From a virus: a DNA stretch of 64,000 bases. Below, piece after piece: positions 7,386-36,417 of the stretch. Every line of letters starts with the position of its first letter. Position 1 is the stretch's first letter. The notes under the pieces are model-generated. The model ran no database searches. It saw only the letters and a list, made by a program, of their open reading frames with translations, and was not told the DNA's origin. The stretch is from positions 1 to 64,000 of the IMG/VR virus record IMGVR_UViG_3300002461_000311; one strand, given 5' to 3'. The translations under genes were made by a program, and so were the position numbers.

Positions 7386-7404
7386 TCGGTTCGAGCCCTC
7401 ATCA

Positions 7405-8946
7405 TCACGCCCTCCAATTCGTTGCTCGGCGGTGATTGATCTTGTTCGGCTTAGGCGGCAGCGCAGCGAAGCGCAGCGTCATGATTGCGTAGCGCGTGGC
7501 GCTCATCAGGTCGTCACGCACCTTGACGATCTTGCCGTCCTTGCGGTGGTAGAGCCTGAACTCCTCGAACCAGTCGTTGAGGTGGCTGAACACCTTCAGC
7601 CGGCCGCCGTTCATGCGCTCGAGCATCTCGGAGATGCCGGCCTCGACGCTGGTGAGGCTTGCCCGGGTGTTCGAGTCCTTGCGGTCACCTTCCTCGGGGA
7701 ACTTGGCCATCTCGGGCAGCATCTTGACGCCCAGGTCCCGGTACTGCGAGGCGAGCTTCGGGCCGGCGGCCGTGTCGTTGTTGCCGTCGTGCGGCCAGGC
7801 CATCGGTATCCACTCGCCGCGGCCCTTGATCGCAGCGGCATGCACAGCCGGCGGCTGCTCGCGAAGCCGGTGGACGTCGTACACGTAGACGATGTCGGCG
7901 TCCCGGTCCCAGGCGATCCAGGCCGCAGCAGTCGGGTGATCCCAACCAAAATCCATCGCGGCCAGTCGCGGCCAGTGCGGGGGCAGCGGGAAGGGCTCGC
8001 ACTTGATGATCGATTCTTCCACCGGAAAGATCCTTCCGCTTCCCAGCACCGGCACGCCCTTGGCTCGAGCCTCGCGCTCGTGGGCCGGGTAGCTCGCCGT
8101 GATCTGGGCGCGCTCCTCTGGGGTGTAGTGCTCTGCGTCGTCGATCGTCATCGAGACGACGTGACGGTCGACCTTGCCCGGATCGTCCTCAGCGGGCAGC
8201 AGGAACCGGCAGACCACGTCCGACATGCCCTTGAGCGGGGTGAACGTCATCGCCACCAGGCCGCGGGTCGTGTTCGTGCGCGTCAGCGTCTCGGTGTAGA
8301 CGCCCAGATCGTCGGGCTCCTCGTCGAGCCAGGCGAAGTCGAGCGTCTCGGCCTGGAACTTCTCCCGGCCCTGCTCGTACGCCTTGAAGGTGAGCTGCGA
8401 CTCGCCGGCCTGCACGTCACCGCCGCCGCCATGCTTCACGACCACGGTATCGATCGAGTCGGCCGCACCGCGCCGCATCGAGTGGTCCTTGATCGCATCC
8501 TTCGGGATCATCCCGGTACCGATCGCGTTCGGCCGGCCCATCAGGATGCGCTGCGCACCGTCGCGCGTCAGTTCAAACGAGACCGAGGCCGACCAGGCCA
8601 CGATCGCCTTGTGCCAGACCCGGCCTTCCCACCAGCTTGGGTACCGGCCGGTGAGATGCATCGCCATCTCGGCGCCGGCCGACAAGGTCTTGCCGACCTG
8701 GTTCGCCGCCATGAGCATGCGCTCACGGTACCGAGCGCCGGCCGCGTGGAACTCGCGCTGCTTGGCGTAGGGCCGATAGCCCTCCAGTCGACGCGCGGCG
8801 AGCGCTTGCTCGAGCTTAGTGCGTAGTGCGAGCAGGGTTGCTCGGCTGGACAGATCCAGCTTTCCCTGCGTCAACTGGTTGAGGTGCGCTAGCTGTGAGA
8901 GCTGCATTGAGTCCTTCAAGGAGCGACTTGGTCTCCTCATAGCCAA
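7405..8946 (-). CDS. terL: terminase large subunit (start codon uncertain; overlaps the terS 3' end)
   Basis: Walker-A-like MAANQVGKT; size and position between terS and portal. Confidence 0.88.
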   Translation of the reverse strand: MAMRRPSRSLKDSMQLSQLAHLNQLTQGKLDLSSRATLLALRTKLEQALAARRLEGYRPYAKQREFHAAGARYRERMLMAANQVGKTLSAGAEMAMHLTGRYPSWWEGRVWHKAIVAWSASVSFELTRDGAQRILMGRPNAIGTGMIPKDAIKDHSMRRGAADSIDTVVVKHGGGGDVQAGESQLTFKAYEQGREKFQAETLDFAWLDEEPDDLGVYTETLTRTNTTRGLVAMTFTPLKGMSDVVCRFLLPAEDDPGKVDRHVVSMTIDDAEHYTPEERAQITASYPAHEREARAKGVPVLGSGRIFPVEESIIKCEPFPLPPHWPRLAAMDFGWDHPTAAAWIAWDRDADIVYVYDVHRLREQPPAVHAAAIKGRGEWIPMAWPHDGNNDTAAGPKLASQYRDLGVKMLPEMAKFPEEGDRKDSNTRASLTSVEAGISEMLERMNGGRLKVFSHLNDWFEEFRLYHRKDGKIVKVRDDLMSATRYAIMTLRFAALPPKPNKINHRRATNWRA

Positions 8947-9382
8947 GATCGTCGAACGGCGAGCGCAGGATCTTGGTCACGTTCACGAACATGCCGAACG
9001 CCTCGCGACCGAACAGCTCGAGCGCCTTGTTCGAGGCGGCGAAGTTAGCAATCCATTCACCAGTGGGCTTGCCTTCGCGGTCGTACACGGGCTCGCCAGC
9101 CTTCGCCTTCATGGCGTTGTCCCAGACCTCGCGCAGCACGTCTTCTCTCGTAACCGCAAGTTTCTCAACGGCTTTCGCGGTCGCTGCCTGCTCTTTGCTA
9201 ACATTTTCGGCAATGAGATTAGCAATGCGCTCCTGCACGTCCTTGCGCTTCTCGACCTTGCAGGCAGCGACGTTCGCCGCCTTGGGCGAGTAGCCTGCGG
9301 TCACGTAGGCTGCGGTCTGCGTCGCACCCTTGGCGCGCTCCTGGCAGTACAGCTCGTGGCGGGCGTTCCTCAGCGCGGGCAT
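8816..9382 (-). CDS. terS: terminase small subunit
   Basis: N-terminus MPALRNARHELYCQERAKGATQTAAYVTAGYSPK is typical of the Terminase_2-type small subunit; sits upstream of terL. Confidence 0.8.
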   Translation of the reverse strand: MPALRNARHELYCQERAKGATQTAAYVTAGYSPKAANVAACKVEKRKDVQERIANLIAENVSKEQAATAKAVEKLAVTREDVLREVWDNAMKAKAGEPVYDREGKPTGEWIANFAASNKALELFGREAFGMFVNVTKILRSPFDDLGYEETKSLLEGLNAALTASAPQPVDAGKAGSVQPSNPARTTH

Positions 9383-10081: not shown

Positions 10082-10417
10082 TCACTGGTCGGTGGGGCGA
10101 TCGGTGTTGGGGTAGTCGCCGGCAGGGCCAGGCACGGCATGCAGCACCGGGGGCGTCTGACCCGCGGCCACGGCCTTCTGGTACGGCATCCACTCGCAGC
10201 GGTGCTCGTTGGTCACGTAGACGTCGCCATTCTGGGCCAGCGGCACGTTCTGCCGGGGGTGGATGGTGCCATCGGCGCCGAACACCGCGAGGTTCACGCA
10301 GTAGTCGTCATGGACAGCCACCACGATCGCAGCCAGCGGCTGGTCGTTGACCTGGGGGAAGGCGTCATCCTTCGCGGGGAAGTACCAGACGATGCGGCCG
10401 GGCGTGGGCTTAATCAT
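10082..10417 (-). CDS. hypothetical protein (111 aa)
   Basis: ATGA-coupled to the upstream gene. Confidence 0.65.
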   Translation of the reverse strand: MIKPTPGRIVWYFPAKDDAFPQVNDQPLAAIVVAVHDDYCVNLAVFGADGTIHPRQNVPLAQNGDVYVTNEHRCEWMPYQKAVAAGQTPPVLHAVPGPAGDYPNTDRPTDQ

Positions 10418-10749
10418 TCCTCAATTCCTTTTGCAGTGTTTGGGTTGGGCACGAAGCGAGTCGGATCGAAGTAGCAGCCGGACATCCCAGCGATGAAGCG
10501 ATGCCCAGGCATGTGGCCGCACTGTCCGTAACCCTGCGGGGGCGCTCGATCACCCTCGGGGAACGAGGCCGGCGATCTGAACGTAGCGCACCGATCACAG
10601 CGGTGATCGGTGAGAGGGTCGTGGATCACGATGCAGTCCGGCATGAAGAACCTGGGGAAGGAGGAGGACAGAGCCTCGACCGAGGGGAGCACTCGGTCGA
10701 GGATGCCCGCCGGGACCACGCTGCACATCGGAGCCGCCCAGAACCTCAA
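10414..10749 (-). CDS. Cys/His-rich hypothetical protein, first gene of this late block (TTG start uncertain)
   Basis: First ORF after the AT-rich divergent intergenic region; no clear RBS. Confidence 0.5.
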   Translation of the reverse strand: MRFWAAPMCSVVPAGILDRVLPSVEALSSSFPRFFMPDCIVIHDPLTDHRCDRCATFRSPASFPEGDRAPPQGYGQCGHMPGHRFIAGMSGCYFDPTRFVPNPNTAKGIEE

Positions 10750-10872
10750 CGAGAAGAGAACTACCCCAAGGTAGCCGACTTAATCGTTAGAGTTCTTATG
10801 GGTGCAAATGCCATTTTGCATGTCTTTTTGGAGATTTCAAGACCTTTGTAAGTTCTTGATTTATTGTGCCAT

Positions 10873-10901
10873 TTGCATTGTTTTATGACTTGTGGCATAA
10901 T
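10873..10901 (+). promoter_or_regulatory. sigma70-like promoter TTGCAT-17-CATAAT for the 10982..17825 operon
   Basis: Hexamers at 10873-10878 and 10896-10901 in a ~230-bp AT-rich gap. A CCATTTGCA motif overlaps the -35. Confidence 0.5.
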
Positions 10902-10981: not shown

Positions 10982-11254
10982 ATGAGATACGTCATTGAGT
11001 TTGGTGTGCGTGGCGGCGCACACAAAGAGGCTCTACATCTTCCCTCCGCAAAGCTCGCGCAAGACCTGGCCGCGAGCCTCGTCGCAGTCTTCAACGACGA
11101 CACCAGCTCCCCGTCCGCTACGCCGAGCGCTTGGCGCATGACGGCCAACTGCCCGCGTCTGTCGTGGACCTCCAGCACGCACTTCATCAGCGTCTCGAAG
11201 CTCGACGGGGTCGCTCGCGGCCCGGCGTCGGCGCAACTGTGGAGGAAGGGCTAA
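10982..11254 (+). CDS. hypothetical protein (90 aa)
   Basis: Strong AAAGGAGAAG RBS before the ATG; first gene after the promoter. Confidence 0.6.
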   Translation: MRYVIEFGVRGGAHKEALHLPSAKLAQDLAASLVAVFNDDTSSPSATPSAWRMTANCPRLSWTSSTHFISVSKLDGVARGPASAQLWRKG

Positions 11255-11256
11255 CC

Positions 11257-11508
11257 ATGGACCCTCTCGCCTGCCTCATCGCCTGCGACCAGGCCATCAG
11301 CGACCTGGATCTGGACGCCGCCCGCGAGCGCCTGCGCGACTACAGCAACTGGCGTCGCCGCGGCGGCTTCGAGCCGATAGACGTCGCCGGCACCACCAAG
11401 CGGGGCGACGCCTTCGCGACCTGGTGCTGGCATCGCCTCGACGACATCGAGCGCCAGCAGCGGCTGTTCGGTGACCTCCCCTCCTTCCTTCGTCAGCAAG
11501 CGGAGTAG
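11257..11508 (+). CDS. hypothetical protein (83 aa)
   Basis: Internal ATG with a GGAGGAAGGG RBS; the upstream part of the ORF overlaps the previous gene. Confidence 0.6.
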   Translation: MDPLACLIACDQAISDLDLDAARERLRDYSNWRRRGGFEPIDVAGTTKRGDAFATWCWHRLDDIERQQRLFGDLPSFLRQQAE

Positions 11509-11510
11509 CG

Positions 11511-12266
11511 ATGAACCTCCCCCAGCTCATGGAGAACCCGCACGCCCTGTTCGTGGTGAGTCACAGCGGCGGCAAAGACAGCCAGGCGATGATGATCGAG
11601 TTGGTTCGCCTGATCCCGCAAGACCGTCTCCTCGTCGTCCATGCTTCCCTGGGCGACATGGAGTGGCCGGGCGCCCTCGAGCACGCCCAGGAGCAGGCGC
11701 AGGGCGCTGGCGTGCCGTTCATCGTGGCGCGGGCCGCGAAGTCTCTGCTCGACATGGTGGAGCACCGCTTCGCGACCCGCCCCGAGGTCCCCTCGTGGCC
11801 GAGCGCCTCGACCAGGCAATGCACATCGGATCTCAAGCGCGGCCCGATCAAGCGCGAGGTGCGCCGCTACGCCGAAGCTCACGGCTTCGACGTGGTCGTC
11901 GAGTGCATGGGCCTGCGCGCCGAAGAGAGCCCGTCGCGCGCCAAGCGAGCGGCGTTCTCTGCGAACGCACGGGAGACGAACAGCAAGCGCGCCTGGTTCG
12001 AGTGGCTGCCCATCCACGAATGGACCACGGCCGAGGTGTTCGGCGCGATTGCCGAGGCGGGCCAGCAGCCGCACCCAGCGTATGCCGCTGGCAACGATCG
12101 GCTGAGCTGCGTGTTCTGCATCATGGCCAGCCGAGGCGACCTGCGCAACGGCGCCCGCCACAACCCGACCCTGTTCGCGCGCTACGTCGAGACAGAGCGC
12201 CGCACGGGCTACACGATGCACATGAGCCGCACCCCCCTCGAGCAACTCGTTCAACAACCGGAGTAA
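11511..12266 (+). CDS. PP-loop ATP-pyrophosphatase, PAPS-reductase/DndC-like family
   Basis: SHSGGKDS PP-loop motif near the N-terminus; 251 aa. Confidence 0.85.
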   Translation: MNLPQLMENPHALFVVSHSGGKDSQAMMIELVRLIPQDRLLVVHASLGDMEWPGALEHAQEQAQGAGVPFIVARAAKSLLDMVEHRFATRPEVPSWPSASTRQCTSDLKRGPIKREVRRYAEAHGFDVVVECMGLRAEESPSRAKRAAFSANARETNSKRAWFEWLPIHEWTTAEVFGAIAEAGQQPHPAYAAGNDRLSCVFCIMASRGDLRNGARHNPTLFARYVETERRTGYTMHMSRTPLEQLVQQPE

Positions 12267-12270
12267 CGCC

Positions 12271-12639
12271 ATGACCAAGCGCAAGCCCAAGTTCAAGCCG
12301 TTCGACCTCGCCGTCTCATCGCACGAACTCGACTCGCCGATCTGGCGCATCGTCGCCGTTGAAGGCCCTCGCGTGGCCGTCGTCGACGCGATGCTCGAGC
12401 ACAAGCGCAAGCTCGAGCCCTCCTGGACCGACGCCTCGATCTTCCTCAAGCCGCTGCCCTGGCAAGGCTACATGCCCGCCATGCGGCGCTGCCTGGACGA
12501 GCGCAACCCGCAGGACGCCGCCAACCTCATCGCCAGCGTGCCGGCGCCGATGCAGCACCACGCGATGGATGCCGCCCGCACAGTTGGCTTCCGCGTCGAG
12601 TTCTATGTCGACGGCGTGCGGGTGTACCTGCCCTCGTAA
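12271..12639 (+). CDS. hypothetical protein (122 aa)
   Basis: Tightly spaced in the operon. Confidence 0.65.
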   Translation: MTKRKPKFKPFDLAVSSHELDSPIWRIVAVEGPRVAVVDAMLEHKRKLEPSWTDASIFLKPLPWQGYMPAMRRCLDERNPQDAANLIASVPAPMQHHAMDAARTVGFRVEFYVDGVRVYLPS

Positions 12640-12731
12640 AGCGTAACGGCTCCGGCTGCCTCGTGACAGGGGGCAGCCTGGGCAATGACGCCCAACCAGC
12701 CAACCCATCGAAGACCACGAAAGGGATGCAC

Positions 12732-13793
12732 ATGACGATTCGACCCCAGCAACTGAAAACCCTCCTCGCCGCCACGATCGCCGCCGGTGACCCGGTTCTG
12801 ATCAAGGGCAAGCCCGGCGTGGGCAAGACCAGCATCGTCGAGCAGGCCACCGAAGCCAATGGCGCCGACCTCCTGGTGAGCCACCCCGTCACCGCCGACC
12901 CGACCGACGCGAAGGGCCTGCCGTGGAAGGTCGAAGGGCGCGATGAGGCCACCTTCCTCCCCTATGGCGACCTCAACCGCGCGATGAAGGCAACGAAGCC
13001 CCTGGTCTGGTTCCTGGACGACCTCGGGCAAGCGAGCCCCACCGTGCAGGCAGCATTCATGCAGCTATTGCTTGCCAGGCGCATCAACGGCCACGCCCTG
13101 CCCGACTGCGTGACGTTCGTGGCCGCCACCAACCGGCGCGAGGATCGCGCGGGCGTGCAGGGCATCCTCGAGCCGGTGAAGTCGCGCTTCGTCACGATCG
13201 TGGAGCTGGAGGCGAACATCGACGACTGGTCGGAGTGGGCCTACGACAACGACGTCGACCCGCGCGTGATCGCCTTCAACCGACTGCGCCCGGATCTGCT
13301 CTCGAGCACGTGGGCGGCGAGCGCCGACATCGTCAACAACGCGACGCCGCGCACCTGGGCGCACGCGGACAAGATCCTGAAGTACGGGCTCGATGACGAG
13401 CTGCGCGCCATCGCCCTGGCGGGGGCAATCGGCGAGGGCGCGACGGCCGAGTTCCTCGGGTTCCTGCGCCTCCAGGAGAAGGCGCCCGCGATCGAGGAGT
13501 TCCTGCTCCACCCGGACACCGCGCCGCTGATCGATGACCCGGGCGTGTGCTACGCCGTGGTCTCCGGACTGGCGTATCGCTGCGACACGACCACCTTCGC
13601 CGCGATCCGCACCTATGCCGAGCGGATGTACGCCGCAGGCGCCTCGGGCGAGCACGTCGGGCTCGCCGAGTTCGCGGTGCTGCTGATCCGCGACTGCTAC
13701 AAGCGCCACCGGGCGATCACCCAGACCCGGGCCTACACCGAGCTGGTGACGAGCCCGATCGGCAAGGCGATCTTCGAGGCACTCGCTCAGTAG
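12732..13793 (+). CDS. MoxR/CbbQ-type AAA+ ATPase
   Basis: Walker A GKPGVGKTS and Walker B LVWFLDD; AAGGG RBS 6 nt before the ATG at 12732. Confidence 0.85.
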   Translation: MTIRPQQLKTLLAATIAAGDPVLIKGKPGVGKTSIVEQATEANGADLLVSHPVTADPTDAKGLPWKVEGRDEATFLPYGDLNRAMKATKPLVWFLDDLGQASPTVQAAFMQLLLARRINGHALPDCVTFVAATNRREDRAGVQGILEPVKSRFVTIVELEANIDDWSEWAYDNDVDPRVIAFNRLRPDLLSSTWAASADIVNNATPRTWAHADKILKYGLDDELRAIALAGAIGEGATAEFLGFLRLQEKAPAIEEFLLHPDTAPLIDDPGVCYAVVSGLAYRCDTTTFAAIRTYAERMYAAGASGEHVGLAEFAVLLIRDCYKRHRAITQTRAYTELVTSPIGKAIFEALAQ

Positions 13794-13867
13794 CACGGCT
13801 TCAGCCACTGCCCCGCGAGTCGGGGCAGTCACGGGCGCCGTGCCCGAACATGGAAAGGGATCACCCG

Positions 13868-14722
13868 ATGAGCATCTCTACCAAAGCTATGCTGGTGTCG
13901 TTGAACATAAAAAGCTACGCCGCGCGTCGCTACGACCGCAAGGTCAGCCAAGACGTGGCCGATCAGCACCAGGCCGACCACAAGGTCGGACGGTACAACA
14001 AGTGCCTGATCGACCCGAAGGCGGCATCGTTCCTCGCGCTGAGCAAGGCGCGTCAGGCGGCCTACGACTGGCACTACGAGCAGACCCTGCCCTGGGCGCA
14101 GGACGGGGCGCGCGTGCTGCCCTCGACGAATTACTTCGAGTACGCCGAGGTGGCACAGCAGCACAAGCGCCGGTTCGAGCAGGCCGCGACCGACTTCATC
14201 GCCGACTTCCCCGGCCTCCAGGCCGCCGCCAAGCTCGCCCTCAACGGCCTGTACCGCGAGGCCGACTACCCGAGCATCGAGCGGCTGAAGGCGAAGTTCG
14301 CCTTCGAGGTCACCTTCCTGCCCGTGCCCGACGCGCAGGACTGGCGGGTCGATCTCGGCGTCGAGCAGGAGCAGGCCATTCGCGAGCAGATCACGACCCA
14401 GGTCGAGCGCGCAGCGAACGAGGCGATGCGCGACATCTGGCAGCGCCTCTACGACGCCGTGCAACACATGGTCGAGCGTCTGTCGCAGCCGGACGCCGTC
14501 TTCCGGGACTCCCTCATCGGCAACGTGCGCGAGCTGTGCGCGCTGCTGCCTCGGCTCAACCTCACGCAGGACCCGGCCCTCAACGCCATGATCGACGAGG
14601 TGCGCGCCAAGCTCAGCGGCAACGAGCCCCAGCGGCTTCGCGACGACAAGGACAAGCGCTCGCAAGTCGCCGAGCAGGCCCGAGCGCTGGCCGCGCGGAT
14701 GGCCTCGTACATGGGCGCCTGA
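13868..14722 (+). CDS. conserved hypothetical protein (284 aa); I tentatively recall a DUF3150-like family
   Basis: Sits between the AAA+ and vWA genes; family assignment is from memory only. Confidence 0.6.
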   Translation: MSISTKAMLVSLNIKSYAARRYDRKVSQDVADQHQADHKVGRYNKCLIDPKAASFLALSKARQAAYDWHYEQTLPWAQDGARVLPSTNYFEYAEVAQQHKRRFEQAATDFIADFPGLQAAAKLALNGLYREADYPSIERLKAKFAFEVTFLPVPDAQDWRVDLGVEQEQAIREQITTQVERAANEAMRDIWQRLYDAVQHMVERLSQPDAVFRDSLIGNVRELCALLPRLNLTQDPALNAMIDEVRAKLSGNEPQRLRDDKDKRSQVAEQARALAARMASYMGA

Positions 14723-14759
14723 TCCCGATTTCCCCCCTACAACTTCACAGGATCGAGAC

Positions 14760-15992
14760 ATGAACCTCAACGAACGTATTGTCAAAGCCCGCATGGCTCT
14801 GGTATTGCACCAGCCCTTCTTCGGCAGCCTGGCGCTGCGGCTCAAGCCGGTGTGCGTACCCGAGATCGAGACCGCCGGCACGGACGGCAAGATCCTTGCG
14901 TACGCGCCCGACTTCATCAACGGCCTGACCGACGCGCAGCTTCGGTTCCTGATCGCGCACGAGGTCATGCATTGCTCGAACGGGCACATCTGGCGGCGCG
15001 GGCACCGCGACCCCGAGCGCTGGAACATCGCCTGCGACTACGCGATCGACCCGGTGCTCGACCGGGCCAGCACCAACGCCCGGGGCACGCGCGTCATGGA
15101 GCTGCCGCCCGGCGCGCACATCCGGCCCGAGTTCATCGGCATGTCCGCCGAAGACATCTACGAGCAGCTCACGCAGGAGGCCCGGCAGGAGCAGCAGCAA
15201 CGGCAGCAGCAGGGCCAAGGGCAAGGCCAGGGTGAGGGCCAGGACCAAGGCCAGAGCCAGGGAGACGGCGAAGGCGAAGGCCAAGGCAAGCGCCCGCGCA
15301 AGACCTACGGCCAGGTGCTGGACGCCGCCCCCTCCGAGGCGAGCGAGTCCGAGCAGGAATGGAAGCAGGCCACGATCCAGGCGGCACGCATCGCTAAAGC
15401 GCAGGGCCACCTACCCCGTGGGCTCGAGCGCCTGGTCGAGTCGCTGCATCAACCGGCAGTGAATTGGCGTGCGGTGCTGCGCCGGTTCGTGCAACAGCTC
15501 GCCCGGCTCGACTACGCCTGGGCGCGCCCGAACTCGCGCTACACCGCCATGGGCCTCTACCTGCCGACGATCCAGTCCGAGCAGATGCCGCCGATCGTCG
15601 TCGTCTTCGACACCTCGGGCTCGATCGGCGGTGACGAGCTGTCGGCGTTCGATGCCGAGCTGCGCTCGATCGTCGACGAGTGCCGGCCGGAGGCCACGCA
15701 TCTGGTCTTCTGCGACGCCGCCGTCGACGAGCGATCGTGCGTCGAGCTGCTGCCCGACGACCCGATCGCCTACACCCCGACCGGGGGCGGCGGCACGTCG
15801 TTCATTCCCGCCTTCGAGTGGGTCCAGCGCCAGGGCATCGAGCCGGCCTGCCTGATCTACCTGACCGACTGCTACGGCACCTTCCCCGCCCAGGCGCCCG
15901 ATTACCCCGTGCTCTGGGCGAGCACCACCAAGGAGCCCGGCCGCTACCAGCCGCCCTTCGGCGAGTTCGTCTACATCGGGGGCGCGCAATGA
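14760..15992 (+). CDS. zincin-like + vWA (MIDAS) protein, DUF2201-like
   Basis: HEVMH motif in the N-terminal half and VVVFDTSGS (DxSxS MIDAS) in the C-terminal half, joined by a Q/G/E low-complexity linker. Confidence 0.78.
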   Translation: MNLNERIVKARMALVLHQPFFGSLALRLKPVCVPEIETAGTDGKILAYAPDFINGLTDAQLRFLIAHEVMHCSNGHIWRRGHRDPERWNIACDYAIDPVLDRASTNARGTRVMELPPGAHIRPEFIGMSAEDIYEQLTQEARQEQQQRQQQGQGQGQGEGQDQGQSQGDGEGEGQGKRPRKTYGQVLDAAPSEASESEQEWKQATIQAARIAKAQGHLPRGLERLVESLHQPAVNWRAVLRRFVQQLARLDYAWARPNSRYTAMGLYLPTIQSEQMPPIVVVFDTSGSIGGDELSAFDAELRSIVDECRPEATHLVFCDAAVDERSCVELLPDDPIAYTPTGGGGTSFIPAFEWVQRQGIEPACLIYLTDCYGTFPAQAPDYPVLWASTTKEPGRYQPPFGEFVYIGGAQ

Positions 15993-16306
15993 GCAAGCGC
16001 GCCCGCCGCAGGAGAAAGATCAAGGCCGAGACCCGAAGAGAGCGGCTCTGGCGCGAGATTCGGAAGGCGTCGGCGCTCTACGCGCACAACCGGGGGCGTG
16101 CCATGGGCCGGTACACCGGGGTCTGGACCGCGCAGCTCACCGTGGTGAGCAAAGGGTCGGGCACGATCACGCTGCTGGGAAACTTCGGCAGGCTGACCCT
16201 ATCGAGGCAGGAGGCGCTGCTACTCAAGCTGCGCCCCACGCCTTCGCCCGAGGCCCTGTCGGACGCGCTCGACGGATGGCAAGAAGAACCCGTTCTCCCC
16301 TTCTGA
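15989..16306 (+). CDS. hypothetical basic protein (105 aa)
   Basis: ATGA overlap with the upstream stop. Confidence 0.55.
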   Translation: MSKRARRRRKIKAETRRERLWREIRKASALYAHNRGRAMGRYTGVWTAQLTVVSKGSGTITLLGNFGRLTLSRQEALLLKLRPTPSPEALSDALDGWQEEPVLPF

Positions 16307-16313
16307 GGCCGAC

Positions 16314-16595
16314 ATGAGCAACCACGTCAGACGCAAGCGAGTATCCGACCAGCGGTGGGCGATGATCAGCGCCCTCCCGCTGGGCAGCACGCTGTACGCG
16401 AAGGCCGGCTCGGGCCTGGAGCACAGGCACCTGGTTCTGACTGTCGTCAACCACGGCACGAGGACCCAGCGCTTCGTCGTCCTGAGCGACGGCAGACACC
16501 TGTACCGCAGAACGCCCAACGCCCTCGTGGCGCAGGGCATACAGCCCACGCCGCATGCCGGCGTGATCACCAAACTCCTGGAGGCATCCCTATGA
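16314..16595 (+). CDS. hypothetical protein (93 aa)
   Basis: In-operon ORF with a GAGG RBS. Confidence 0.55.
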   Translation: MSNHVRRKRVSDQRWAMISALPLGSTLYAKAGSGLEHRHLVLTVVNHGTRTQRFVVLSDGRHLYRRTPNALVAQGIQPTPHAGVITKLLEASL

Positions 16596-16996
16596 CCAGC
16601 ATTGCCTATCGTGAATGCCGCGAGGCATACTCGGCGCCCATGAGCAAAGACCGCAAAGAGATCTACCTCGGCGAGGGGTTGCGCCGCGCCCTCAAGGGCC
16701 GGCGGGACTCGCTCACCGCGGCCGTGAACAAGATCGCCGATCGCTACCAGGCCATGGTCGAGGCGTCGCTGCCGGAGCTGAGCGCGGCCGAGTGGGCGCT
16801 GCTCGAGGCGGCCCTCAACCACCCCATGGACCGGGCGCCCGAGGCCGCACACATCGCCGGCCTCCCCGCCATCGTTGGCCACGCGTTGAGGCGCACCCCT
16901 GGCGGCCCCGAACTGGCGGCCAAGCTCGCCGGCATGACCCTGTCCGAGCTGGTGGCCGCGGTCGACCACCTCGAGCGCAGCGGCGGCGCGCAATGA
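16592..16996 (+). CDS. hypothetical protein (134 aa)
   Basis: ATGA overlap; normal composition. Confidence 0.6.
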   Translation: MTSIAYRECREAYSAPMSKDRKEIYLGEGLRRALKGRRDSLTAAVNKIADRYQAMVEASLPELSAAEWALLEAALNHPMDRAPEAAHIAGLPAIVGHALRRTPGGPELAAKLAGMTLSELVAAVDHLERSGGAQ

Positions 16997-17250
16997 GTCT
17001 GCCGAGCGGTTTTTTCAACTGGAACAGCGCCCTGCGGGGCGCCTTCCTGAAGGGTGCCGCCGCTTGCCTGGAAGGACAGCCGATCACCGACTGCCCCTAC
17101 CAGGACAAGCGCAAGTACTGCGGCCGGCTCACATGGTCGCGAGCCTTCATGACCGCCTGGAAGAACGGCTGGGCCTACGCCAACGCAGATCGGGCCGATG
17201 CGCTCATCACCATGGAGCACCGGAACACGCTGCTGAGGGCGTACCGATGA
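16993..17250 (+). CDS. Rmf/CrpP-like small protein
   Basis: GAFLKGAAACLEGQPITDCPYQD...WKNGW resembles the ribosome-modulation-factor/CrpP fold signature; ATGA coupling. Confidence 0.6.
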   Translation: MSLPSGFFNWNSALRGAFLKGAAACLEGQPITDCPYQDKRKYCGRLTWSRAFMTAWKNGWAYANADRADALITMEHRNTLLRAYR

Positions 17251-17825
17251 CCGCCCAGCCCACCCCCAACCCGCTCGGCCCCTACACCCTCTACAACTGG
17301 CTCGCGCTGATGGACCCCGGCATGGAGTGCGTGCTCTCTCTCCACGATCGCACGTCTCCCGCGTCGATCTGGTCCGTGAGCCGGCCCGCGCTGAGCGAGC
17401 TGCGGCAAGCCTTCGTCGTTCGTGGGCCGGACGCCGCCGGGCTCATGCTCAAGCGCATGGGGCTGCCGTTTGAGCCTTCTGTCGACGAACTCAGAAGCAT
17501 CTCGCCCAAGAGCAACCCCGCCGGCCACTTCCTCGAGGGCGACGGCGCGTCCATTGCCGCGCTCGAGCGCATGGCCGCGCGGCACGGCTTTGTCGCAATG
17601 CGCAGGCATCAGTCCGTAAGGGGGGGCACCCCGTACTCGGTCACGCTCACAGTGCAAGGGCAACGATGCTGCATCTATGCGCCGGATTCGCATAACAAGG
17701 TGTCCGTCCAGGTCGGCTCCGACGACGCAATGCACGGCACCCCTGCGCCGTGCGCCACGAACTACCCCGACCTCATCCGACAGATGGAGGCGACCGCCCT
17801 GTCCACGATCCTGGGCGGTCTATGA
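17247..17825 (+). CDS. hypothetical protein (192 aa), last gene of the operon
   Basis: ATGA overlap; the 3' end overlaps the 3' end of the convergent Q-like gene by 6 nt. Confidence 0.6.
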   Translation: MTAQPTPNPLGPYTLYNWLALMDPGMECVLSLHDRTSPASIWSVSRPALSELRQAFVVRGPDAAGLMLKRMGLPFEPSVDELRSISPKSNPAGHFLEGDGASIAALERMAARHGFVAMRRHQSVRGGTPYSVTLTVQGQRCCIYAPDSHNKVSVQVGSDDAMHGTPAPCATNYPDLIRQMEATALSTILGGL

Positions 17826-18431
17826 ACGACCGGTGTGCCGGCCCCTGACCGCCCAGGTCAGGGCGCTGGCCACGTCGCGCTCGGCGCGATCGAGCTGCTC
17901 GAGTAGTTGATCGTGCCGCTTGCGCTCGATCATGATGTCCACGACGCGCTTGCGCCGTGCCGCCTGCGCCGCATCGGACGCCTGCTCCCCCAGCCTGGGG
18001 GGCAGCTTGCGGCCCAGCCAGGGCCGCTCTCGGCGCCCCGTACCCAGGCAGACCCCACACACCCGATGATGCCTGGCGGGCGCGCCCTCGACGTGCTGGT
18101 GGCCCACGCCGCCACACGCTCGGCAATGATCGGATAGCCAGTAGTCGAGCACCCGCTTCGACATCGCCGCGAGCTGCTGCTCGGCTCGCCAGCGGTAGCG
18201 CATGTTCAGATGTCGCGCCATGCGCTGGACGGCCTGGAGCATCGCAGGATAGGCCGCCGCCTCGTTGGCGTACTTCAACGCGACAAGAGCATCGCAGAGG
18301 TCGTGCGATCGACTCGCAATCCCCACCGCGATGATCTTGTCCAGGCGGCCGTCGCGCCAGTCGAGCTTTCTCGACGCCATGGCAACGGCCACCTGTTCCA
18401 TCACACTGGGAGCATCCGCTCCGCGTTTCAT
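17820..18431 (-). CDS. lambda-Q-like antiterminator / late regulator candidate
   Basis: Paired CxxCxGxG zinc knuckles (CRACGGVG, CGVCLGTG), as in lambda Q (CRDCHGTG, CGRCKGVG). Last gene of the rightward early operon. Confidence 0.55.
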   Translation of the reverse strand: MKRGADAPSVMEQVAVAMASRKLDWRDGRLDKIIAVGIASRSHDLCDALVALKYANEAAAYPAMLQAVQRMARHLNMRYRWRAEQQLAAMSKRVLDYWLSDHCRACGGVGHQHVEGAPARHHRVCGVCLGTGRRERPWLGRKLPPRLGEQASDAAQAARRKRVVDIMIERKRHDQLLEQLDRAERDVASALTWAVRGRHTGRS

Positions 18432-18935
18432 TTACTTCGACTTTGCCTTCGCCTTGGTCGCGGGCTTGGTTGCCGGCTTCTTCGCGGGGGCCTTCTTTGC
18501 TACTGCCACGGGCTTCTTCGCTGCCATGATGCTCTCCTTGGTAATGCCCGCCTCTGTCGGCCCGGCGGGCGATGGGCCATCCTTGGGCGCGGAACACGCG
18601 ACCCGCAGAACTCTCTCGATCGTGCCGAGTGCTGCCCCGGCACGGACCTGATCCGCGGAGAAGCGCAGCACTTGCCAGCCCAACTCGGCCGCGGCCGCGT
18701 ACTTCTCCAAGTCCTTCTTGTAGCCGCCAATGGTCTGGTGTCTGCTCTTGCCGTTGCCGACCAACCCTTCGACCTCGACCGCGATCTTGCACGGCAGCGC
18801 GAAGTCAAAGCGCCAGTTCCGCTCGGCATGGAAGCGGTGCTCACGGGCAAAGGGGATGGCGCTGGCGCGCAGTTGCAGCGCCAGCGTCTCCTCGCCCACC
18901 GAGGGCGGCCTAGGGATCTTTGTCGGCACCCCCAC
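18432..18935 (-). CDS. PD-(D/E)xK endonuclease (DUF559/Vsr-like) with histone-H1-like Lys/Ala/Pro tail
   Basis: RFDFALP..KIAVEVEG...GWQVLRF core; C-terminus AAKKPVAVAKKAPAKKPATKPATKAKAKSK. Confidence 0.65.
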   Translation of the reverse strand: MGVPTKIPRPPSVGEETLALQLRASAIPFAREHRFHAERNWRFDFALPCKIAVEVEGLVGNGKSRHQTIGGYKKDLEKYAAAAELGWQVLRFSADQVRAGAALGTIERVLRVACSAPKDGPSPAGPTEAGITKESIMAAKKPVAVAKKAPAKKPATKPATKAKAKSK

Positions 18936-19251
18936 CCCCCACGCCGAGCACGCCTTGATGTATCGCCTGGGTGAGCGCCATCAGAGCGTGCATCAATTGA
19001 TCCCCGTGCTGCGCCTCCCACGACTTCGGCGCCGCATGCAGTTGCTCGTGACAGACCCGGCACAGCGGCAGCACCAGACAATCCGGCGCGCGCTTGCCTG
19101 TCCCTCGGAACATCCCAGTGACGTGGTGTGGATCGCTGGCGCCCTGAGCGCCCGCGCACACCACGCACGGCAACGACTTCACCCACGTCAGGTATGGCCG
19201 ACTGCGCCACGCCTCCACATAACCGGCTGCCAGTGCCGATCTGAAAGACAT
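18910..19251 (-). CDS. DUF968-like (HNH-related) protein
   Basis: YLTWVKSLPCVVCG...DPHHV...GKRAPD...LPLCRVCHEQLH pattern. Start set at the third Met. Confidence 0.65.
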   Translation of the reverse strand: MSFRSALAAGYVEAWRSRPYLTWVKSLPCVVCAGAQGASDPHHVTGMFRGTGKRAPDCLVLPLCRVCHEQLHAAPKSWEAQHGDQLMHALMALTQAIHQGVLGVGGGGADKDP

Positions 19252-19401
19252 GCCGCGCGGCACCATGCTTCCGCCGCCCATGCTACGTCCACCTCCACTT
19301 CGCCTTCGACCGATCGATTGCCCCATTGCCTCCTCCGGCGTACGCGAAAAGCTGCACGCGGACTAGGCAATCGGCATGCCATGCACCCGGGGTTTTCCCG
19401 C

Positions 19402-19878
19402 TCATGCGTTTGCCTCTGCCATCAAGGCGGAGTAGGGCTTGCGGATCGCCTCGTGGAAGATCGCCGAGGCCGAGGGGTTCGTGTCGAGATCCCGACGTGT
19501 TTGGATGTCGCACAGCTCGAGCAGGGCTTCGCGTGCGTCAGATTCGTTACGGATCGGGATGCCGTAGCGATTCGCAAGGAACGTGTGGAACGCAGGCTCC
19601 CGGCAGCGCAACACCGCCCACTGGCACAGCGGCCCAGGCCCGGACGGCGCCTTGGGCGCCTCGTCGTCGCCGATCTCCACCAGCACACAGGCGAAGCGGT
19701 GGCCGGCCGTGTTCCCCTTGCGCACGGTCAGCCCGCGGAACACCTCCAGGTCCTCGGAGTTGGGCAGCCAGAACGTGATCGTGGCCCCGCCCGTGTGCGT
19801 CTCCTTCCATCCCGCGAGCATGACTTCGGACTGAAATGTGGGCCGAATCCCTGAGACGCTTTCCACATCGCTGCTCAT
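19402..19878 (-). CDS. hypothetical early protein (158 aa)
   Basis: ATG at 19878 is coupled to the upstream stop; the longer ORF N-terminus is Arg-rich shadow. Confidence 0.6.
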   Translation of the reverse strand: MSSDVESVSGIRPTFQSEVMLAGWKETHTGGATITFWLPNSEDLEVFRGLTVRKGNTAGHRFACVLVEIGDDEAPKAPSGPGPLCQWAVLRCREPAFHTFLANRYGIPIRNESDAREALLELCDIQTRRDLDTNPSASAIFHEAIRKPYSALMAEANA

Positions 19879-20411
19879 CGGTAGGCATCCTCCAACCACA
19901 ACAACGTCGATGATTCGTCGCCGCCTGCCAGCCCCACGGCCTGGGCCACAAGCGAGAGGACGACTGGCAGCCCGCTCGTGGGGCGCTGCGTCACCGGGGC
20001 GCGCTGGCGCAGGAGCTGATCGATCGAGGCCCGCACCCCGGCCGGCATCGCGGACTTCTTGCCTGCCGGGGGCAACTTGGTGACGTGACGTTGCACAGCC
20101 CGCACGCACGCCATGAACTCCGGCAGCGAGGGCGCGTACCGCTGGCAGTCGGTCTTCACCCGCTCCAGGGCGCGCTTCACGTCATCGACATCGCACCGGG
20201 CAAGCTCGGCCGCCCAGACCTTCTGCGCTGCTAGCACGCCGGTATCGCTGCCGGCCGCATCGACCTGGCCCGATCGGAACTTGTCCATCCACTGGTTCCC
20301 GTAGAACCCATGCAGGACGGCGAAGACACGACGCGCCAGGCGCTCGCCGAACTCATCCGACCCGCTCTGCGGTTCCGTGAATGAAGGCCCCATCGTCTGA
20401 ATGCTGCGCAT
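19875..20411 (-). CDS. lambda-P-like replication (helicase-loader) protein
   Basis: ...QKVWAAEL...YAPSLPEFMACVR parallels lambda P ...RQWVLAF...FLPSPGQFVAWCR; directly downstream of the O-like gene. Confidence 0.6.
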   Translation of the reverse strand: MRSIQTMGPSFTEPQSGSDEFGERLARRVFAVLHGFYGNQWMDKFRSGQVDAAGSDTGVLAAQKVWAAELARCDVDDVKRALERVKTDCQRYAPSLPEFMACVRAVQRHVTKLPPAGKKSAMPAGVRASIDQLLRQRAPVTQRPTSGLPVVLSLVAQAVGLAGGDESSTLLWLEDAYR

Positions 20412-21096: not shown

Positions 21097-21353
21097 CCCT
21101 CATTCCTCCCATCGCCTGCTTCGACGCGCGATGCGAGTCTGCGGATGCGCCCGATGCGTCCGTAGAGGAAATCCTCGAGGATCTGCCGGCCCAGCTCTGC
21201 CGGCGGGATGCCGTGGATGTGGGCGTACGCGCGGAAGTCTTCGCGCATTTGCTCAGAACAGGGGACGTCAATGCGTGCCGTACACTTGCCCAACAGGTCA
21301 GTCACCCCAGACCGAGACTTCAGCCCGGGTTTTGGCCGTCGCTCCCGACTCAT
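21093..21353 (-). CDS. small early regulator candidate (cII position, 86 aa)
   Basis: ATGA-coupled between the cro-like and O-like genes. Confidence 0.55.
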   Translation of the reverse strand: MSRERRPKPGLKSRSGVTDLLGKCTARIDVPCSEQMREDFRAYAHIHGIPPAELGRQILEDFLYGRIGRIRRLASRVEAGDGRNEG

Positions 21354-21598
21354 CCATATCTCCCAGTTTTTGGCCGAGATCGAGCGCGAGCTTTCTTCGC
21401 GACGGCCCGGCGGTTGCGAAGGTCCACGAGCGCCAGGTACAGCTCGGCGTTCGGGCGTTTGCGCTTCCGGTTCAGGAGCCGGCTGATATGACCCTGCGAA
21501 CACTGGATCTCAGCAGCGATCTCCTGCTGGCTCAGGCCGGCGTCAATCAGCCCCGCCAGCAGCAGCTCCACCGGCATCGTGGTAGGTGTGGTCTTCAT
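21350..21598 (-). CDS. cro: Cro-like HTH regulator (82 aa)
   Basis: HTH LSQQEIAAEIQCSQGHISRLLN; divergent from the cI-like gene across the operator region. Confidence 0.7.
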   Translation of the reverse strand: MKTTPTTMPVELLLAGLIDAGLSQQEIAAEIQCSQGHISRLLNRKRKRPNAELYLALVDLRNRRAVAKKARARSRPKTGRYG

Positions 21599-21607: not shown

Positions 21608-21661
21608 AGTATATGCCTTTCGGCATCCGATTTCAACGCAAGGCATATGCCCGAGAGCGTG
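21608..21661 (-). promoter_or_regulatory. early rightward-type promoter (TTGAAA-17-TATACT, minus strand) with operator ATATGCC-N4-GGCAT in the spacer and a second half-conserved site
   Basis: -10 at 21608-21613 and -35 at 21631-21636 (plus-strand coordinates). Operator sites at 21611-21626 and 21646-21661. Confidence 0.65.
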
Positions 21662-21709: not shown

Positions 21710-22363
21710 ATGAAAGAATCATTCGGCCAACGCGTGAAGCGCCTGCGCGAAGAGCTTGGCCTCGAGCAGCAACATCTCGCCCAGGCCGTGGGCTGCACCC
21801 AGGGCACGATCTCCAGGATCGAGGGCGGACGCAACAAGACGAGCCGCCTGCTCATGCGCCTGGCCCCTGCGCTCGGGGTGAGTCCGGAGTACCTCGCCAG
21901 CGGCCAAGGCGAGCGATCGGGCGCGAAGCTAACGCTCGTCCCCCAGCCCGAATCGATCCCGGTCATGCCGCTGAGCAAGAAGCGAACGGCCCAAGGCGCG
22001 GGCACGCCGATCGAACAGATCACGCTCTCTCGCGGGTGGGTCAAAGCGAACCTGCCGCTGCTCAGCTCGCCCGCGCACTTGCGCGTGACGACGATGTTCG
22101 GCAACGCGATGTCGCCGACGATCGACAACGGCGATCTGCTGCTGGTCGATACCGGCGTCACTACGCTCCAGCCCGATGCCGTGCTGCTCCTCTCCACGGA
22201 TGGAGACGTGAGTTGCCGGCGCGCGCAGCGGCGCTATGATGACGGATGGACAGTGCGCGCCGACAACCCGGTCTACGAGCCCCAGCACCTCGAGCGCGAG
22301 GCCGACCTGCGCGGGCGCATCATCGGGCGCGTGCTCTACCGGCTGCGCGGCCTGATGCTGTGA
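21710..22363 (+). CDS. cI: CI-like repressor (XRE HTH + S24 LexA-type peptidase)
   Basis: N-terminal HTH (QQHLAQAVGCTQGTISRIEGG) and a C-terminal S24-like domain (GNAMSPTI...). The 5' 208 codons of the long ORF are rejected. Confidence 0.9.
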   Translation: MKESFGQRVKRLREELGLEQQHLAQAVGCTQGTISRIEGGRNKTSRLLMRLAPALGVSPEYLASGQGERSGAKLTLVPQPESIPVMPLSKKRTAQGAGTPIEQITLSRGWVKANLPLLSSPAHLRVTTMFGNAMSPTIDNGDLLLVDTGVTTLQPDAVLLLSTDGDVSCRRAQRRYDDGWTVRADNPVYEPQHLEREADLRGRIIGRVLYRLRGLML

Positions 22364-22671
22364 TGCACTGGCACGATCGGCTGTTGCTGGCCGCCTCGGC
22401 CGCGGCCGTCCTGGTGCTCTGGGTCGTGGGCGGATCGCTGCTGGGTGCCCTCGGCGCCGTCATCCGCTTCTGGCTGTTGTTCATCGCCGCCGCCGCCCTC
22501 CTCGGGCGCCTGCCCTCGGCGCGGCGCATGTCCCCCATCGCCTACTTCAGCTCGGCCGCGGCCATCGCGCTGTGCCTCGAGGTCGGCATCGAGCTGTACC
22601 TGCCCACGGTCGCCCATCTACCCGGCGACGACGGCCCCTGCTACGACAGGCAAGGCCCCCACGACTGCTAG
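22363..22671 (+). CDS. three-TM membrane protein co-transcribed with cI
   Basis: TGATG overlap with the cI stop; hydrophobic segments. Confidence 0.6.
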   Translation: MHWHDRLLLAASAAAVLVLWVVGGSLLGALGAVIRFWLLFIAAAALLGRLPSARRMSPIAYFSSAAAIALCLEVGIELYLPTVAHLPGDDGPCYDRQGPHDC

Positions 22672-22720: not shown

Positions 22721-22769
22721 TTGACTTCTCATATGCCCGGCGGCATAATACGCATATCCCTTGCGGCAT
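22721..22769 (+). promoter_or_regulatory. early leftward-type promoter TTGACT-17-CATAAT with operator ATATGCCCGGCGGCAT in the spacer and a second site ATATCCCTTGCGGCAT
   Basis: Hexamers at 22721-22726 and 22744-22749. Operator sites at 22731-22746 and 22754-22769. Confidence 0.7.
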
Positions 22770-29595: not shown

Positions 29596-29825
29596 AAGGG
29601 CTAGTCACGCTCGATACGTGGATCGAGATCAACTACGAGGAGCCCCGCCCGTCGATCTACACGGCGCGGCGCTGGGTCAAGAACGGCAACATCACGCCCA
29701 GACCGCAAAAGCATGGACGCAGCTACTACCTGCGCCCGGATGCCCAGTACCGCAAAGTGGCGCCTGGATCGAGAACCCGACTCATCGACGTGCTCCATGG
29801 TCAGACACAGAACCAGCCGGCGTAA
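29592..29825 (+). CDS. xis: lambda-type excisionase
   Basis: VTLDTWIEINYEEPRPSIYTARRWVKNGNITPRPQKHGRSYYL aligns by eye with lambda Xis LTLQEWNARQRRPRSLETVRRWVRECRIFPPPVKDGREYLF. Confidence 0.85.
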   Translation: MKGLVTLDTWIEINYEEPRPSIYTARRWVKNGNITPRPQKHGRSYYLRPDAQYRKVAPGSRTRLIDVLHGQTQNQPA

Positions 29826-33351: not shown

Positions 33352-33356
33352 ACCAC

Positions 33357-33440
33357 GGCATGGCATGGCCGGGCTGGGCGGGGCATGGCGCGGCATGGCA
33401 AGGCCGGGCAAGGCAAGGCAAGGGGCTGCTGGTTGCAGCG
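33357..33440. repeat. pentamer-periodic tract (GGCNN)x13 followed by AAGGGGCTGCTGGTTGCAGCG (unit 1)
   Basis: Direct reading: ggcat ggcat ggccg ggctg ggcgg ggcat ggcgc ggcat ggcaa ggccg ggcaa ggcaa ggcaa. Confidence 0.85.
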
Positions 33441-36415: not shown

Positions 36416-36417
36416 GA

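Follow-up and report, generated by a model that had tools for sequence, protein, structure and literature searches.

The window analyzed here, a 64,000-nucleotide stretch of viral DNA (positions 1 to 64,000 of IMG/VR record IMGVR_UViG_3300002461_000311), has a GC content of about 66% and represents most of the genome of a temperate phage of about 65 kb. Between positions 10982 and 17825 it carries 12 closely packed open reading frames (ORFs), g1 to g12, all on the plus strand. Within this cluster stand three genes (g5, g6, and g7, hereafter the trio) encoding a MoxR-class ATPase, a DUF3150-family protein, and a protein in which a zincin is joined to a von Willebrand factor A (vWA) domain. Minus-strand late genes lie on one side of the cluster and the end of the minus-strand early-right operon on the other. 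An earlier note, made from the DNA letters, had described the cluster as a co-directional twelve-gene operon, and our analysis bore this out: GC content at third codon positions (GC3) is 0.78 to 0.92 in the called frame of all 12 ORFs, and gene calls made independently on sister contigs give seven of the same products (353, 284, 410, 105, 93, 134, and 85 aa). An identical g7 protein was found on other metagenome contigs of up to 65,454 bp, while a megablast search with the operon against 50,697 phage records returned no match. The coupling of the genes through ATGA and GTGA overlaps, which the note had also claimed, holds in part: ATGA overlaps are present at 4 of the 11 junctions (g7/g8, g9/g10, g10/g11, and g11/g12), but GTGA overlaps at none, and the remaining seven junctions are gaps, four of them of 2 to 7 nt and three of 86, 74, and 37 nt preceding g5, g6, and g7, respectively. 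The family assignments were all reproduced, namely a PAPS-reductase-family PP-loop enzyme, an AAA_5/MoxR ATPase, a 284-aa protein that is a relative of DUF3150, a zincin with a vWA domain, and an Rmf/CrpP-family protein.

The first component of the trio, g5 (12726-13793, plus strand; 355 aa, or 353 aa if translation starts at 12732), is a MoxR-class AAA_5 ATPase (AAA_5, 39.7 bits against a cut-off of 22, E = 6.2e-10; phrog_1297, 1.7e-65). It contains a Walker A motif (GKPGVGKT), a Walker B motif (FLDD), a TNR motif, and a conserved arginine; in 78 relatives, Walker A (GxPGxGKT), Walker B (D[D/E]), the sensor-1 asparagine, and the arginine finger are conserved. The nearest solved sequences to g5 are the AAA modules of Midasin, and the gene is paired with one encoding a vWA domain with a metal ion-dependent adhesion site (MIDAS), g7, which starts 966 nt downstream. 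By analogy, we propose that g5 forms a MoxR-class AAA_5 ATPase ring.

The second component, g6 (13868-14722, plus strand; 284 aa), gave no Pfam match of its own at E <= 0.01. Homologues 40 to 47% identical to it carry PF11348 (DUF3150), a phage homologue with 30% identity is annotated as DUF3150, and its only fold matches in BFVD are DUF3150 proteins, the best of them at E = 5.8e-18. The family comprises 9,943 clusters at 50% identity (E <= 1e-3). The AlphaFold2 (AF2) model of g6 has a predicted local distance difference test score (pLDDT) of 84.5, with residues 156-161 alone falling below 50. An invariant PxPDAxDFRV loop (residues 152-161) joins the N-terminal alpha/beta part of the protein to a C-terminal helical bundle. 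A Foldseek search of the PDB with this model gave no informative fold (best E = 0.3), and a PDB sequence search with g6 gave no match.

The third component, g7 (14760-15992, plus strand; 410 aa), consists of an N-terminal zincin (HEVMH), a variable linker rich in Q, G, and E, and a C-terminal vWA domain with a complete MIDAS. It matches DUF2201_N (168.6 bits, 2.8e-49), which we take to belong to clan Peptidase_MA, and DUF2201 (84.5 bits, 8e-24). Across 36 sequences, little or no variation was seen at the MIDAS residues D284-x-S286-x-S288, T346, and D370; of the zincin residues, H67, E68, and H71 are kept in 90% or more, H76 in all, and D93 in nearly all, with the third zinc ligand presumably among them. 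When the AF2 model (pLDDT 85.9) was searched with Foldseek, it matched integrin I domains and the MDN1 MIDAS domain with a probability of 0.96 to 1.00, the NorD vWA domain with 0.72, and, over 72 residues, the minimal zincin selecase with 0.99. The fold matches to MDN1 and NorD thus uphold the chelatase-like AAA+/vWA pairing that had been suggested for this operon. A PDB sequence search with g7 gave insignificant matches only, and none of the three trio proteins had a match in PADLOC.

The zincin-vWA protein is labeled "HNH endonuclease" in PHROGs (phrog_1314) and in many GenBank and RefSeq phage records. Because it has no HNH domain and is matched by Pfam DUF2201_N and DUF2201, we regard this label as a propagated misannotation.

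We surveyed the trio in 80 IMG/VR loci and 80 genomic loci, both sets retrieved via DUF3150, and found it complete, in the order MoxR, DUF3150, zincin-vWA, in at least 152 of the 160. Among the IMG/VR loci, MoxR was upstream of DUF3150 in all 80 and the zincin-vWA gene (DUF2201) downstream in 79, the sole exception being cut by a contig end; the order was constant, with all genes on one strand, in 79 of the 80, and the median gap between MoxR and DUF3150 was 110 nt. The genomic loci, which come mostly from alphaproteobacterial metagenome-assembled genomes (MAGs) and often occur in several copies per genome, contained DUF2201 in every case and MoxR in 74. This strict conservation of gene order and catalytic residues shows that the trio, at a minimum, functions as a unit.

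Carriers of the trio include lytic phage contigs, Burkholderiales conjugative plasmids, and alphaproteobacterial mobile elements, and we also found it in cyanophage MinM2, in a Simplicispira plasmid of the MOBH/MPF_F type, and in pBVIE02 of B. vietnamiensis. By tblastn against PLSDB, DUF3150 matched 62 plasmid records, 29 of them typed as conjugative, and g7 matched 122. The recurrence in conjugative elements that the earlier note had suggested is thereby confirmed. Co-occurrence, which the note had named as a test, holds for part of the gene set: it is very strong for MoxR, DUF3150, and zincin-vWA, but the PAPS reductase is absent from all 80 viral loci and from L005, the closest relative. 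Far wider in distribution is the MoxR/zincin-vWA pair without DUF3150, which occurs in 531 phage records that include N4-like phages, phage G, and Thermus phage phiFa; DUF3150 was detectable in three cultured-phage records only. In viral loci, DNA polymerase A is encoded downstream of the trio and on its strand; in lytic metagenomic contigs, the trio runs with this polymerase gene and against the terminase. Two further contigs, L005 and L006, whose DUF3150 proteins are 71% and 50% identical to g6, share the arrangement of the window, with a plus-strand trio operon between the minus-strand late genes and the early-right end. In L005, the flanks are an identified terminase and, at the early-right end, DUF968; in L006, they are DUF5675 and unnamed genes on the late side and YbcO/DUF1367 at the early-right end.

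The alphaproteobacterial MAGs (L093-L167; for example, L094, L114, and L162) contain, in as many as six copies per genome, a candidate ICE or transposable element composed of PAPS reductase, MoxR, DUF3150, and zincin/vWA genes. Downstream in this element are genes for a ParB_N protein of about 880 aa and a conserved protein of about 600 aa and, in some cases, for a Strawberry-notch helicase of 1546 aa. Nearby genes encode an E2-ThiF-JAB fusion and a Mu-type transposase.

The sigma70-like promoter that had been predicted for the operon is indeed present at 10872-10901 (plus strand), with a -35 element TTTGCA at 10872-10877, an 18-nt spacer, and a TG-extended -10 element CATAAT at 10896-10901. 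It matches the consensus at 9 of 12 positions in addition to the TG. The 9.3 kb scanned contain three promoter-like sites, this one included, where 0.7 would be expected. The promoter sits in an AT-rich divergent intergenic region and is nearly identical in L005. Its spacer and -10 element are overlapped by an operator-like palindrome with one mismatch, ATGACTTGTGGCAT (10885-10898).

Sites of the same kind are found in the immunity region. There, a cI-like gene (21710-22363; helix-turn-helix [HTH] and Peptidase_S24) is divergent from a cro-like gene (21350-21598, minus strand; HTH), and between the two a perfect operator-like palindrome, ATGCCTTTCGGCAT (21613-21626), lies over the -10 element of a PR-like promoter on the minus strand (TTGAAA-17-TATACT), so that this -10 element is covered by ATGCCGAAAGGCAT. 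Another perfect palindrome, ATGCCCGGCGGCAT (22733-22746), lies over the -10 element of a PL-like promoter (TTGACT-17-CATAAT, 22721-22749), which has a second operator site at 22756-22769. Sites that match ATGCC-N4-GGCAT with up to one mismatch number 12, where 3.2 would be expected; exact matches to the extended form ATGNC-N4-GGCATAAT, of which 0.18 would be expected, are confined to two places, 10885 at the operon promoter and 22733 at the PL-like promoter. The operon-promoter site also shares its -10 register with the PL-like and PR-like sites.

The comparison with related phages extends this pattern. L005, which is of the same immunity type, has an identical operon-promoter site and its own perfect copies at the cro/cI and PL-like promoters, while the heteroimmune L088, from an Enterobacteriaceae MAG, carries TTGACA-N4-TTAGCG-N6-GCTA at both its operon promoter and its PR-like promoter. 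An operator over the core promoter, sharing of that operator with the immunity region, and covariation between immunity types are the sequence features of a repressor-controlled early promoter, and all three were found. Since the operator lies over the -10 element of the operon promoter and covaries in L088, the operon is probably repressor controlled and immediate-early, and the covariation is the strongest available evidence for control by the immunity repressor. Most likely, the operon is a third immediate-early unit, predicted to be silent in the lysogen, and neither a moron nor a late unit. The earlier note had placed it in the slot where lambdoid phages have PR', qut, and morons, on the opposite strand. 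The location and the strand stand, and both are kept in L005 and L006, but the unit is not of the PR' or moron type, as its promoter bears an immunity operator. The neighboring gene that the note had called Q-like did not prove to be a Q homologue. Its 203-aa product (17820-18431, minus strand) occupies the Q position and resembles Q by that position and a CxxC...CxxC motif only; it had no match in Pfam, PHROG, or PDB sequences.

Three further features concern the operators and the immunity region. A perfect operator-like sequence, ATGCCGCGAGGCAT, lies within g10 (16615-16628); the three letters after it are ACT, and a weak TTGCCT precedes CATACT by 18 nt. L005 has a one-mismatch counterpart (12361-12374) at the same place in its g10 homologue. 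This site may serve g11-g12 as an internal promoter under repressor control, or it may simply reflect conservation of the encoded residues (E-C-x-x-A-Y-S). On the minus strand, a promoter-like sequence divergent from the operon promoter (TTGAAA-16-CAAAAT, 10840-10813) has an operator-like sequence, ATGCCATTTTGCAT (10808-10821), over its -10 element, and the first minus-strand genes beside it are at 10414-10749 and 10082-10417. We regard this site as no more than a candidate fourth operator, its register being different and L005 being without it. The interval from the cI-like gene to the PL-like promoter, where lambda has rexAB, holds an ORF (22246-22671, plus strand; at most 141 aa) that has no family match. 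It overlaps cI at its 5' end, so that its true start is later, and it is a candidate lysogen-expressed moron.

Our best reading of these data, which we hold tentatively, is that the operon is an immediate-early unit, the third in this temperate phage of the lambdoid type with its P22-like portal, and that the trio is an ATP-driven, MIDAS-guided protease of the establishment stage. The phage's own cI/Cro-type repressor would keep the operon silent, and it would fire at infection or induction together with the PL-like and PR-like promoters. In MoxR-vWA systems such as Midasin/Rea1, NorQD, CbbQO, and RavA-ViaA, the MIDAS binds an acidic residue of the client and the AAA+ ring remodels it (PMC7159879). 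If the trio works as Midasin, NorQ/NorD, and CbbQ/CbbO do, the MIDAS of g7 would grip an acidic residue of its client and the g5 ATPase would pull on or remodel that client. Unlike in those systems, the fused zincin of g7 would then cut it; we propose this coupling of remodeling to cleavage because the zincin that g7 carries alongside its vWA domain has kept its active site intact. As for g6, we speculate that it may be a MIDAS-docked adaptor or pro-substrate, whose flexible PxPDAxDFRV loop could serve as the ligand of the MIDAS and perhaps also as the site of cleavage. The trio would act at the establishment stage on a protein of the host or of the element, and not in virion assembly. Its position in the early or replication regions of lytic phages, together with its presence on plasmids and mobile elements, makes such establishment-stage action most likely.

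The trio is a variant of the MoxR-vWA theme. Like NorQ/NorD, CbbQ/CbbO, RavA/ViaA, CoxD/CoxE, and Midasin/Rea1, it has an AAA_5 ATPase beside a vWA/MIDAS partner gene, and it resembles MDN1-MIDAS and NorD by fold and the Midasin AAA modules by sequence. Unlike these classical pairs, it has a conserved N-terminal zincin on the vWA protein, a dedicated DUF3150 protein, and a mobile-element context, and it is not part of a metalloenzyme client operon. A paper on the N4-like Delftia phage RG-2014 (PMC5735904) reportedly names DUF2201. In accessible papers searched by DUF names, no function of the module is described, and a paper on plasmid leading regions contains no mention of vWA, AAA, or PAPS. 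The pair is known in the literature solely as an unstudied annotation, in Iyer et al. 2021 and in N4-like core gene lists, and the searchable literature holds no description of the obligatory DUF3150 three-gene unit, of its spread over phages, plasmids, and mobile elements, or of its operator-bearing early promoter.

A MoxR and VWA module also stands in the backbone of MOBH-type conjugative elements, as in IncP-7 plasmid pCAR1, where ORF100-103 encode a MoxR-like ATPase and a VWA protein that are said to be conserved in R478, Rts1, SXT, and R391 (PMC2642839). Homology of the trio to this module was considered and is not supported by the PLSDB tblastn searches with g6 and g7, whose matches lie on Burkholderiales, actinobacterial, and cyanobacterial plasmids, with no enterobacterial or Vibrio genus among the commonest genera listed. 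The pCAR1/SXT module is probably a parallel family.

Several points weigh against an establishment-stage protease. N4-like phages and Thermus phage phiFa lack DUF3150, which therefore cannot be a client that every MoxR/zincin-vWA pair requires. In the window copy, the Walker B motif of g5 reads D-D, not D-E. The operon-promoter site has one mismatch to a perfect palindrome, and the operator assignment consists of a sequence pattern and its covariation in four phages. No PADLOC or anti-defense annotation directly backs a conflict role, and the MoxR/zincin-vWA pair was proposed by Iyer et al. 2021 to serve in virion assembly (PMC7824862). A bolder version of the proposal, in which the trio would be a general establishment weapon of mobile DNA, turned on at entry by phages, plasmids, and other elements, that extracts and cuts a conserved host protein (for example, a defense factor or a nucleoid or repair factor) with DUF3150 as docked adaptor or pro-substrate, is conceivable but, in our estimate, doubtful.

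A different role for the trio could be sought in its neighbor g3 (11511-12266, plus strand; 251 aa), the PAPS-reductase-family PP-loop enzyme (PF01507 PAPS_reduct, 49.4 bits against a cut-off of 22.5, E = 6.8e-13; phrog_424, 4e-45). Its PP-loop, SHSGGKDS (residues 17-24), and three cysteines, C104, C201, and C204, are conserved in an alignment of 95 sequences (g3 and 94 distinct relatives). The best PADLOC matches are to a BrxP domain (2.3e-22), SspD, and DndC. The similarity to DndC is at the domain level only, g3 scoring 25.8 bits against an equivalog cut-off of 290.4 (TIGR03183), and it also fails the equivalog cut-offs for CysH (NF002537, 17.8 against 154 bits; TIGR02055, 18.6 against 235.3 bits). 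With DndC, SspD, BrxP, and the phage PAPS-Dam anti-Dnd protein it shares the PP-loop and PAPS_reduct domain, and it is phage-borne and located in a variable region; unlike PAPS-Dam or DndC, it is a stand-alone protein of 251 aa, with no Dam fusion and no DndA/D/E partners present. Vibrio phages with a PAPS-Dam fusion gene have gained anti-Dnd activity (Piel et al. 2022; preprint 10.1101/2021.05.05.442762), and by this precedent anti-restriction DNA modification is our best guess for the role of g3.

The association of g3 with the trio differs between the two sets of loci. A g3-like gene was found at none of the 80 viral trio loci, nor was one present in L001-L004 (MinM2, Thermus phiFa, and two plasmids) or L005, and none of the 80 closest viral relatives of g3 (59 to 69% identity) has a trio within 8 kb. 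In the genomic loci, a g3-like copy (about 50% identity) lies directly upstream of MoxR, that is, within 1.5 kb and on the matching strand, in 28 of 80, and anywhere in the locus in 34. The association is therefore recurrent but facultative. These counts bear on the possibility that the operon encodes a single DNA-modification pathway, in which the MoxR-vWA proteins would mature or load a metal or iron-sulfur (Fe-S) cofactor into g3, in the manner of a chelatase or NorQD, and g3 would thiolate or otherwise modify phage DNA against restriction. Such a pathway would accord with the maturation of metalloenzymes that is typical of MoxR-vWA systems (PMC7159879), with the fit of the three conserved cysteines to a 3-Cys Fe-S site, with the BrxP, SspD, and DndC matches of g3 in the defense library, with the anti-Dnd activity conferred by a phage PAPS domain, and with the recurrence of the g3-like gene upstream of MoxR in both the window and the 28 genomic loci, two lineages whose trio proteins are 29 to 40% identical. 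It is contradicted by the absence of g3 from every viral trio locus, from all plasmids examined, and from L005, and by the closest viral relatives of g3, which never adjoin a trio, and it leaves the conserved zincin active site without a role. We consider it unlikely. An obligate PAPS-trio pathway was rejected as the leading interpretation on the 0 of 80 counts obtained both ways in the viral data, and a maturation link between g3 and the trio is a minority possibility.

The remaining genes of the operon, all on the plus strand, vary around the trio. The first two, g1 (10982-11254; 90 aa; ribosome-binding site AAAGGAG) and g2 (11257-11508; 83 aa), have L005 homologues with 71% and 81% identity, while g4 (12271-12639; 122 aa; GC3 0.91) had no homologue in any fetched locus. 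Downstream of the trio, g8 (15989-16306; 105 aa), with a basic N-terminus, is joined to g7 by an ATGA overlap; g9 (16314-16595; 93 aa) has an L005 homologue with 35% identity; and g10 (16592-16996; 134 aa), which also has an ATGA overlap, has homologues in L005 (56%) and L088 (46%). The Rmf/CrpP-family protein is encoded by g11 (16993-17250; 85 aa), which passes the cut-off of family model NF041886 (31 against 28 bits) and falls below those of NF041887 (25 against 40), the ICE-type CrpP_fam (16.7 against 55), and the Rmf equivalog (15.2 against 40 bits). The last gene, g12 (17247-17825; 192 aa; GC3 0.85), is an ORFan: a search of 5.8 billion clusters returned g12 alone. No family match was obtained for g1, g2, g4, g8-g10, or g12 in Pfam, PHROG, curated hidden Markov model (HMM), and PADLOC scans. 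At the convergent ends of g12 and the minus-strand gene at 17820-18431, an inverted repeat (CCTGGGCGGTC / GACCGCCCAGG, 17810-17857; 11 nt perfect, 26-nt spacer) straddles the 6-nt overlap of the two genes. It is without a T tract and was not called by the terminator scan; it may be a bidirectional stop that limits convergent read-through.

In two variant sister contigs with an identical g7 (L249 and L251), a single 129-aa gene replaces g8-g9 (105 and 93 aa), and the window operon and that of L005 have in common g1, g2, the trio, g9, and g10 only, with five other genes of L005 at the place of g3-g4. These gene swaps mark the trio as the fixed core of a cargo hotspot, around which g3, the Rmf/CrpP-like protein, and the ORFans would be exchangeable cargo of the anti-restriction or host-takeover type. 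Such turnover might also be taken to mean that the operon is a mosaic of unrelated accessory genes linked by co-transcription only, and the proximity of the trio to replication genes in lytic phages would then suggest a housekeeping-type chaperone for replication proteins. We think this improbable, since the conserved order and catalytic residues mark the trio as one unit and the fused protease would be left unexplained.

A role in virion assembly, with the MoxR and zincin-vWA proteins folding and proteolytically processing structural proteins, is another reading. It is the exact prediction made for the MoxR and MPTase-vWA pair by Iyer et al. 2021 (PMC7824862); it has been proposed for jumbo phages and a MoxR-vWA pair with such a function is documented for Acidianus two-tailed virus; a "second structural module" of RPP1 lies near gp24/25 (PMC4193335); and very large virion-type proteins of the phage, including a 3661-aa polyvalent protein, could need processing. 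The MoxR and metallopeptidase-vWA pairs known from phages (N4-like gp24/gp25, those of group 2.2 jumbo phages, Bacillus phage G gp576, and that of phiFa) are close to the trio: phrog_1297 and phrog_1314 are common to both, tblastn identity is 28 to 35% over 97 to 99% of g7, and the genes adjoin and are co-oriented. They differ in having no intervening DUF3150, and their phages are lytic and hence without repressor control. In N4, gp24 and gp25, which encode an uncharacterized protein and a vWFA protein, belong to the set of 14 genes that form the N4-like core; they are transcribed in the middle period, ahead of the late genes (PMC4193335). The trio also occurs on conjugative plasmids and on mobile elements of chromosomes, which form no virions. 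This and its predicted early control argue against virion assembly, as do the divergence of the operon from the late genes, the immunity operator at its promoter, the middle transcription of gp24/gp25 in N4, and the co-orientation of the trio in lytic contigs with DNA polymerase rather than terminase. We therefore regard this role as very unlikely for the trio.

The trio has a structural parallel in the ternary vWA-MoxR-VMAP and iSTAND systems (Kaur et al. 2020, eLife; the BREX paper; PMC12839542), which likewise combine a MoxR protein, a vWA-peptidase-type effector, and a third, regulatory protein. Unlike them, the trio has DUF3150 as its third component, with no VMAP or iSTAND protein; its peptidase is N-terminal with intact catalytic residues, and it is carried by invaders, not host defense islands. 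That the trio is itself a VMAP-like defense or exclusion system borne by the element against competing invaders, as this architecture, the frequent carriage of defense systems by mobile elements, and the E2-ThiF-JAB fusions near the alphaproteobacterial loci might suggest, is highly improbable given the negative PADLOC result, the operator over the -10 element, which predicts silence in the lysogen, where a defense gene should be on, and the core status of the pair in strictly lytic N4-like phages.

The rest of the window is consistent in its layout with a temperate phage. On the minus strand are genes for a P22-type portal (4722-7478), the large terminase (7405-8976), and the small terminase (8816-9382), the closest terminases, about 55% identical, being those of podophages of Rhizobium, Achromobacter, and Xylella. 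The early-right operon includes a DUF968/NinG-like gene (18910-19326) and a helicase-loader-like gene (19875-20411), both on the minus strand. A lambda-type integrase gene (29713-30882, plus strand) is directly followed by a gene of an MmcB-like nuclease family (30908-31930, plus strand). The region 33000-37000 has a lower GC content (0.58 to 0.62) and no confident genes and is possibly the attP region or foreign cargo. The 3661-aa ORF (38036-49021, minus strand) contains InPase, LPD37, and weak ART-PolyVal domains and is a phage-type polyvalent protein; polyvalent proteins have been predicted to be packaged and injected (Iyer et al. 2017). Rfam and tRNA scans of the whole window gave no matches.

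Within a very large family, the copy in the window is unexceptional, and the interest of the trio lies in the function of that family and in the concrete tests it opens. The pair occurs in 531 cultured-phage records and is one of 14 N4-like core gene sets, and there are about 10,000 DUF3150 clusters at 50% identity. Setting g3 apart from the trio as independent cargo of the anti-restriction type matters for annotators who call such genes sulfur-metabolism auxiliary metabolic genes. With the trio strictly conserved, its residues intact, and its promoter bearing an operator, a vague "chaperone?" label becomes a testable model with named residues and a predicted timing. If the trio does extract and cut a conserved host protein, it would be the first MoxR-vWA system with a counter-defense or host-takeover role, and gp24/gp25 of the N4-like phages would gain a function.

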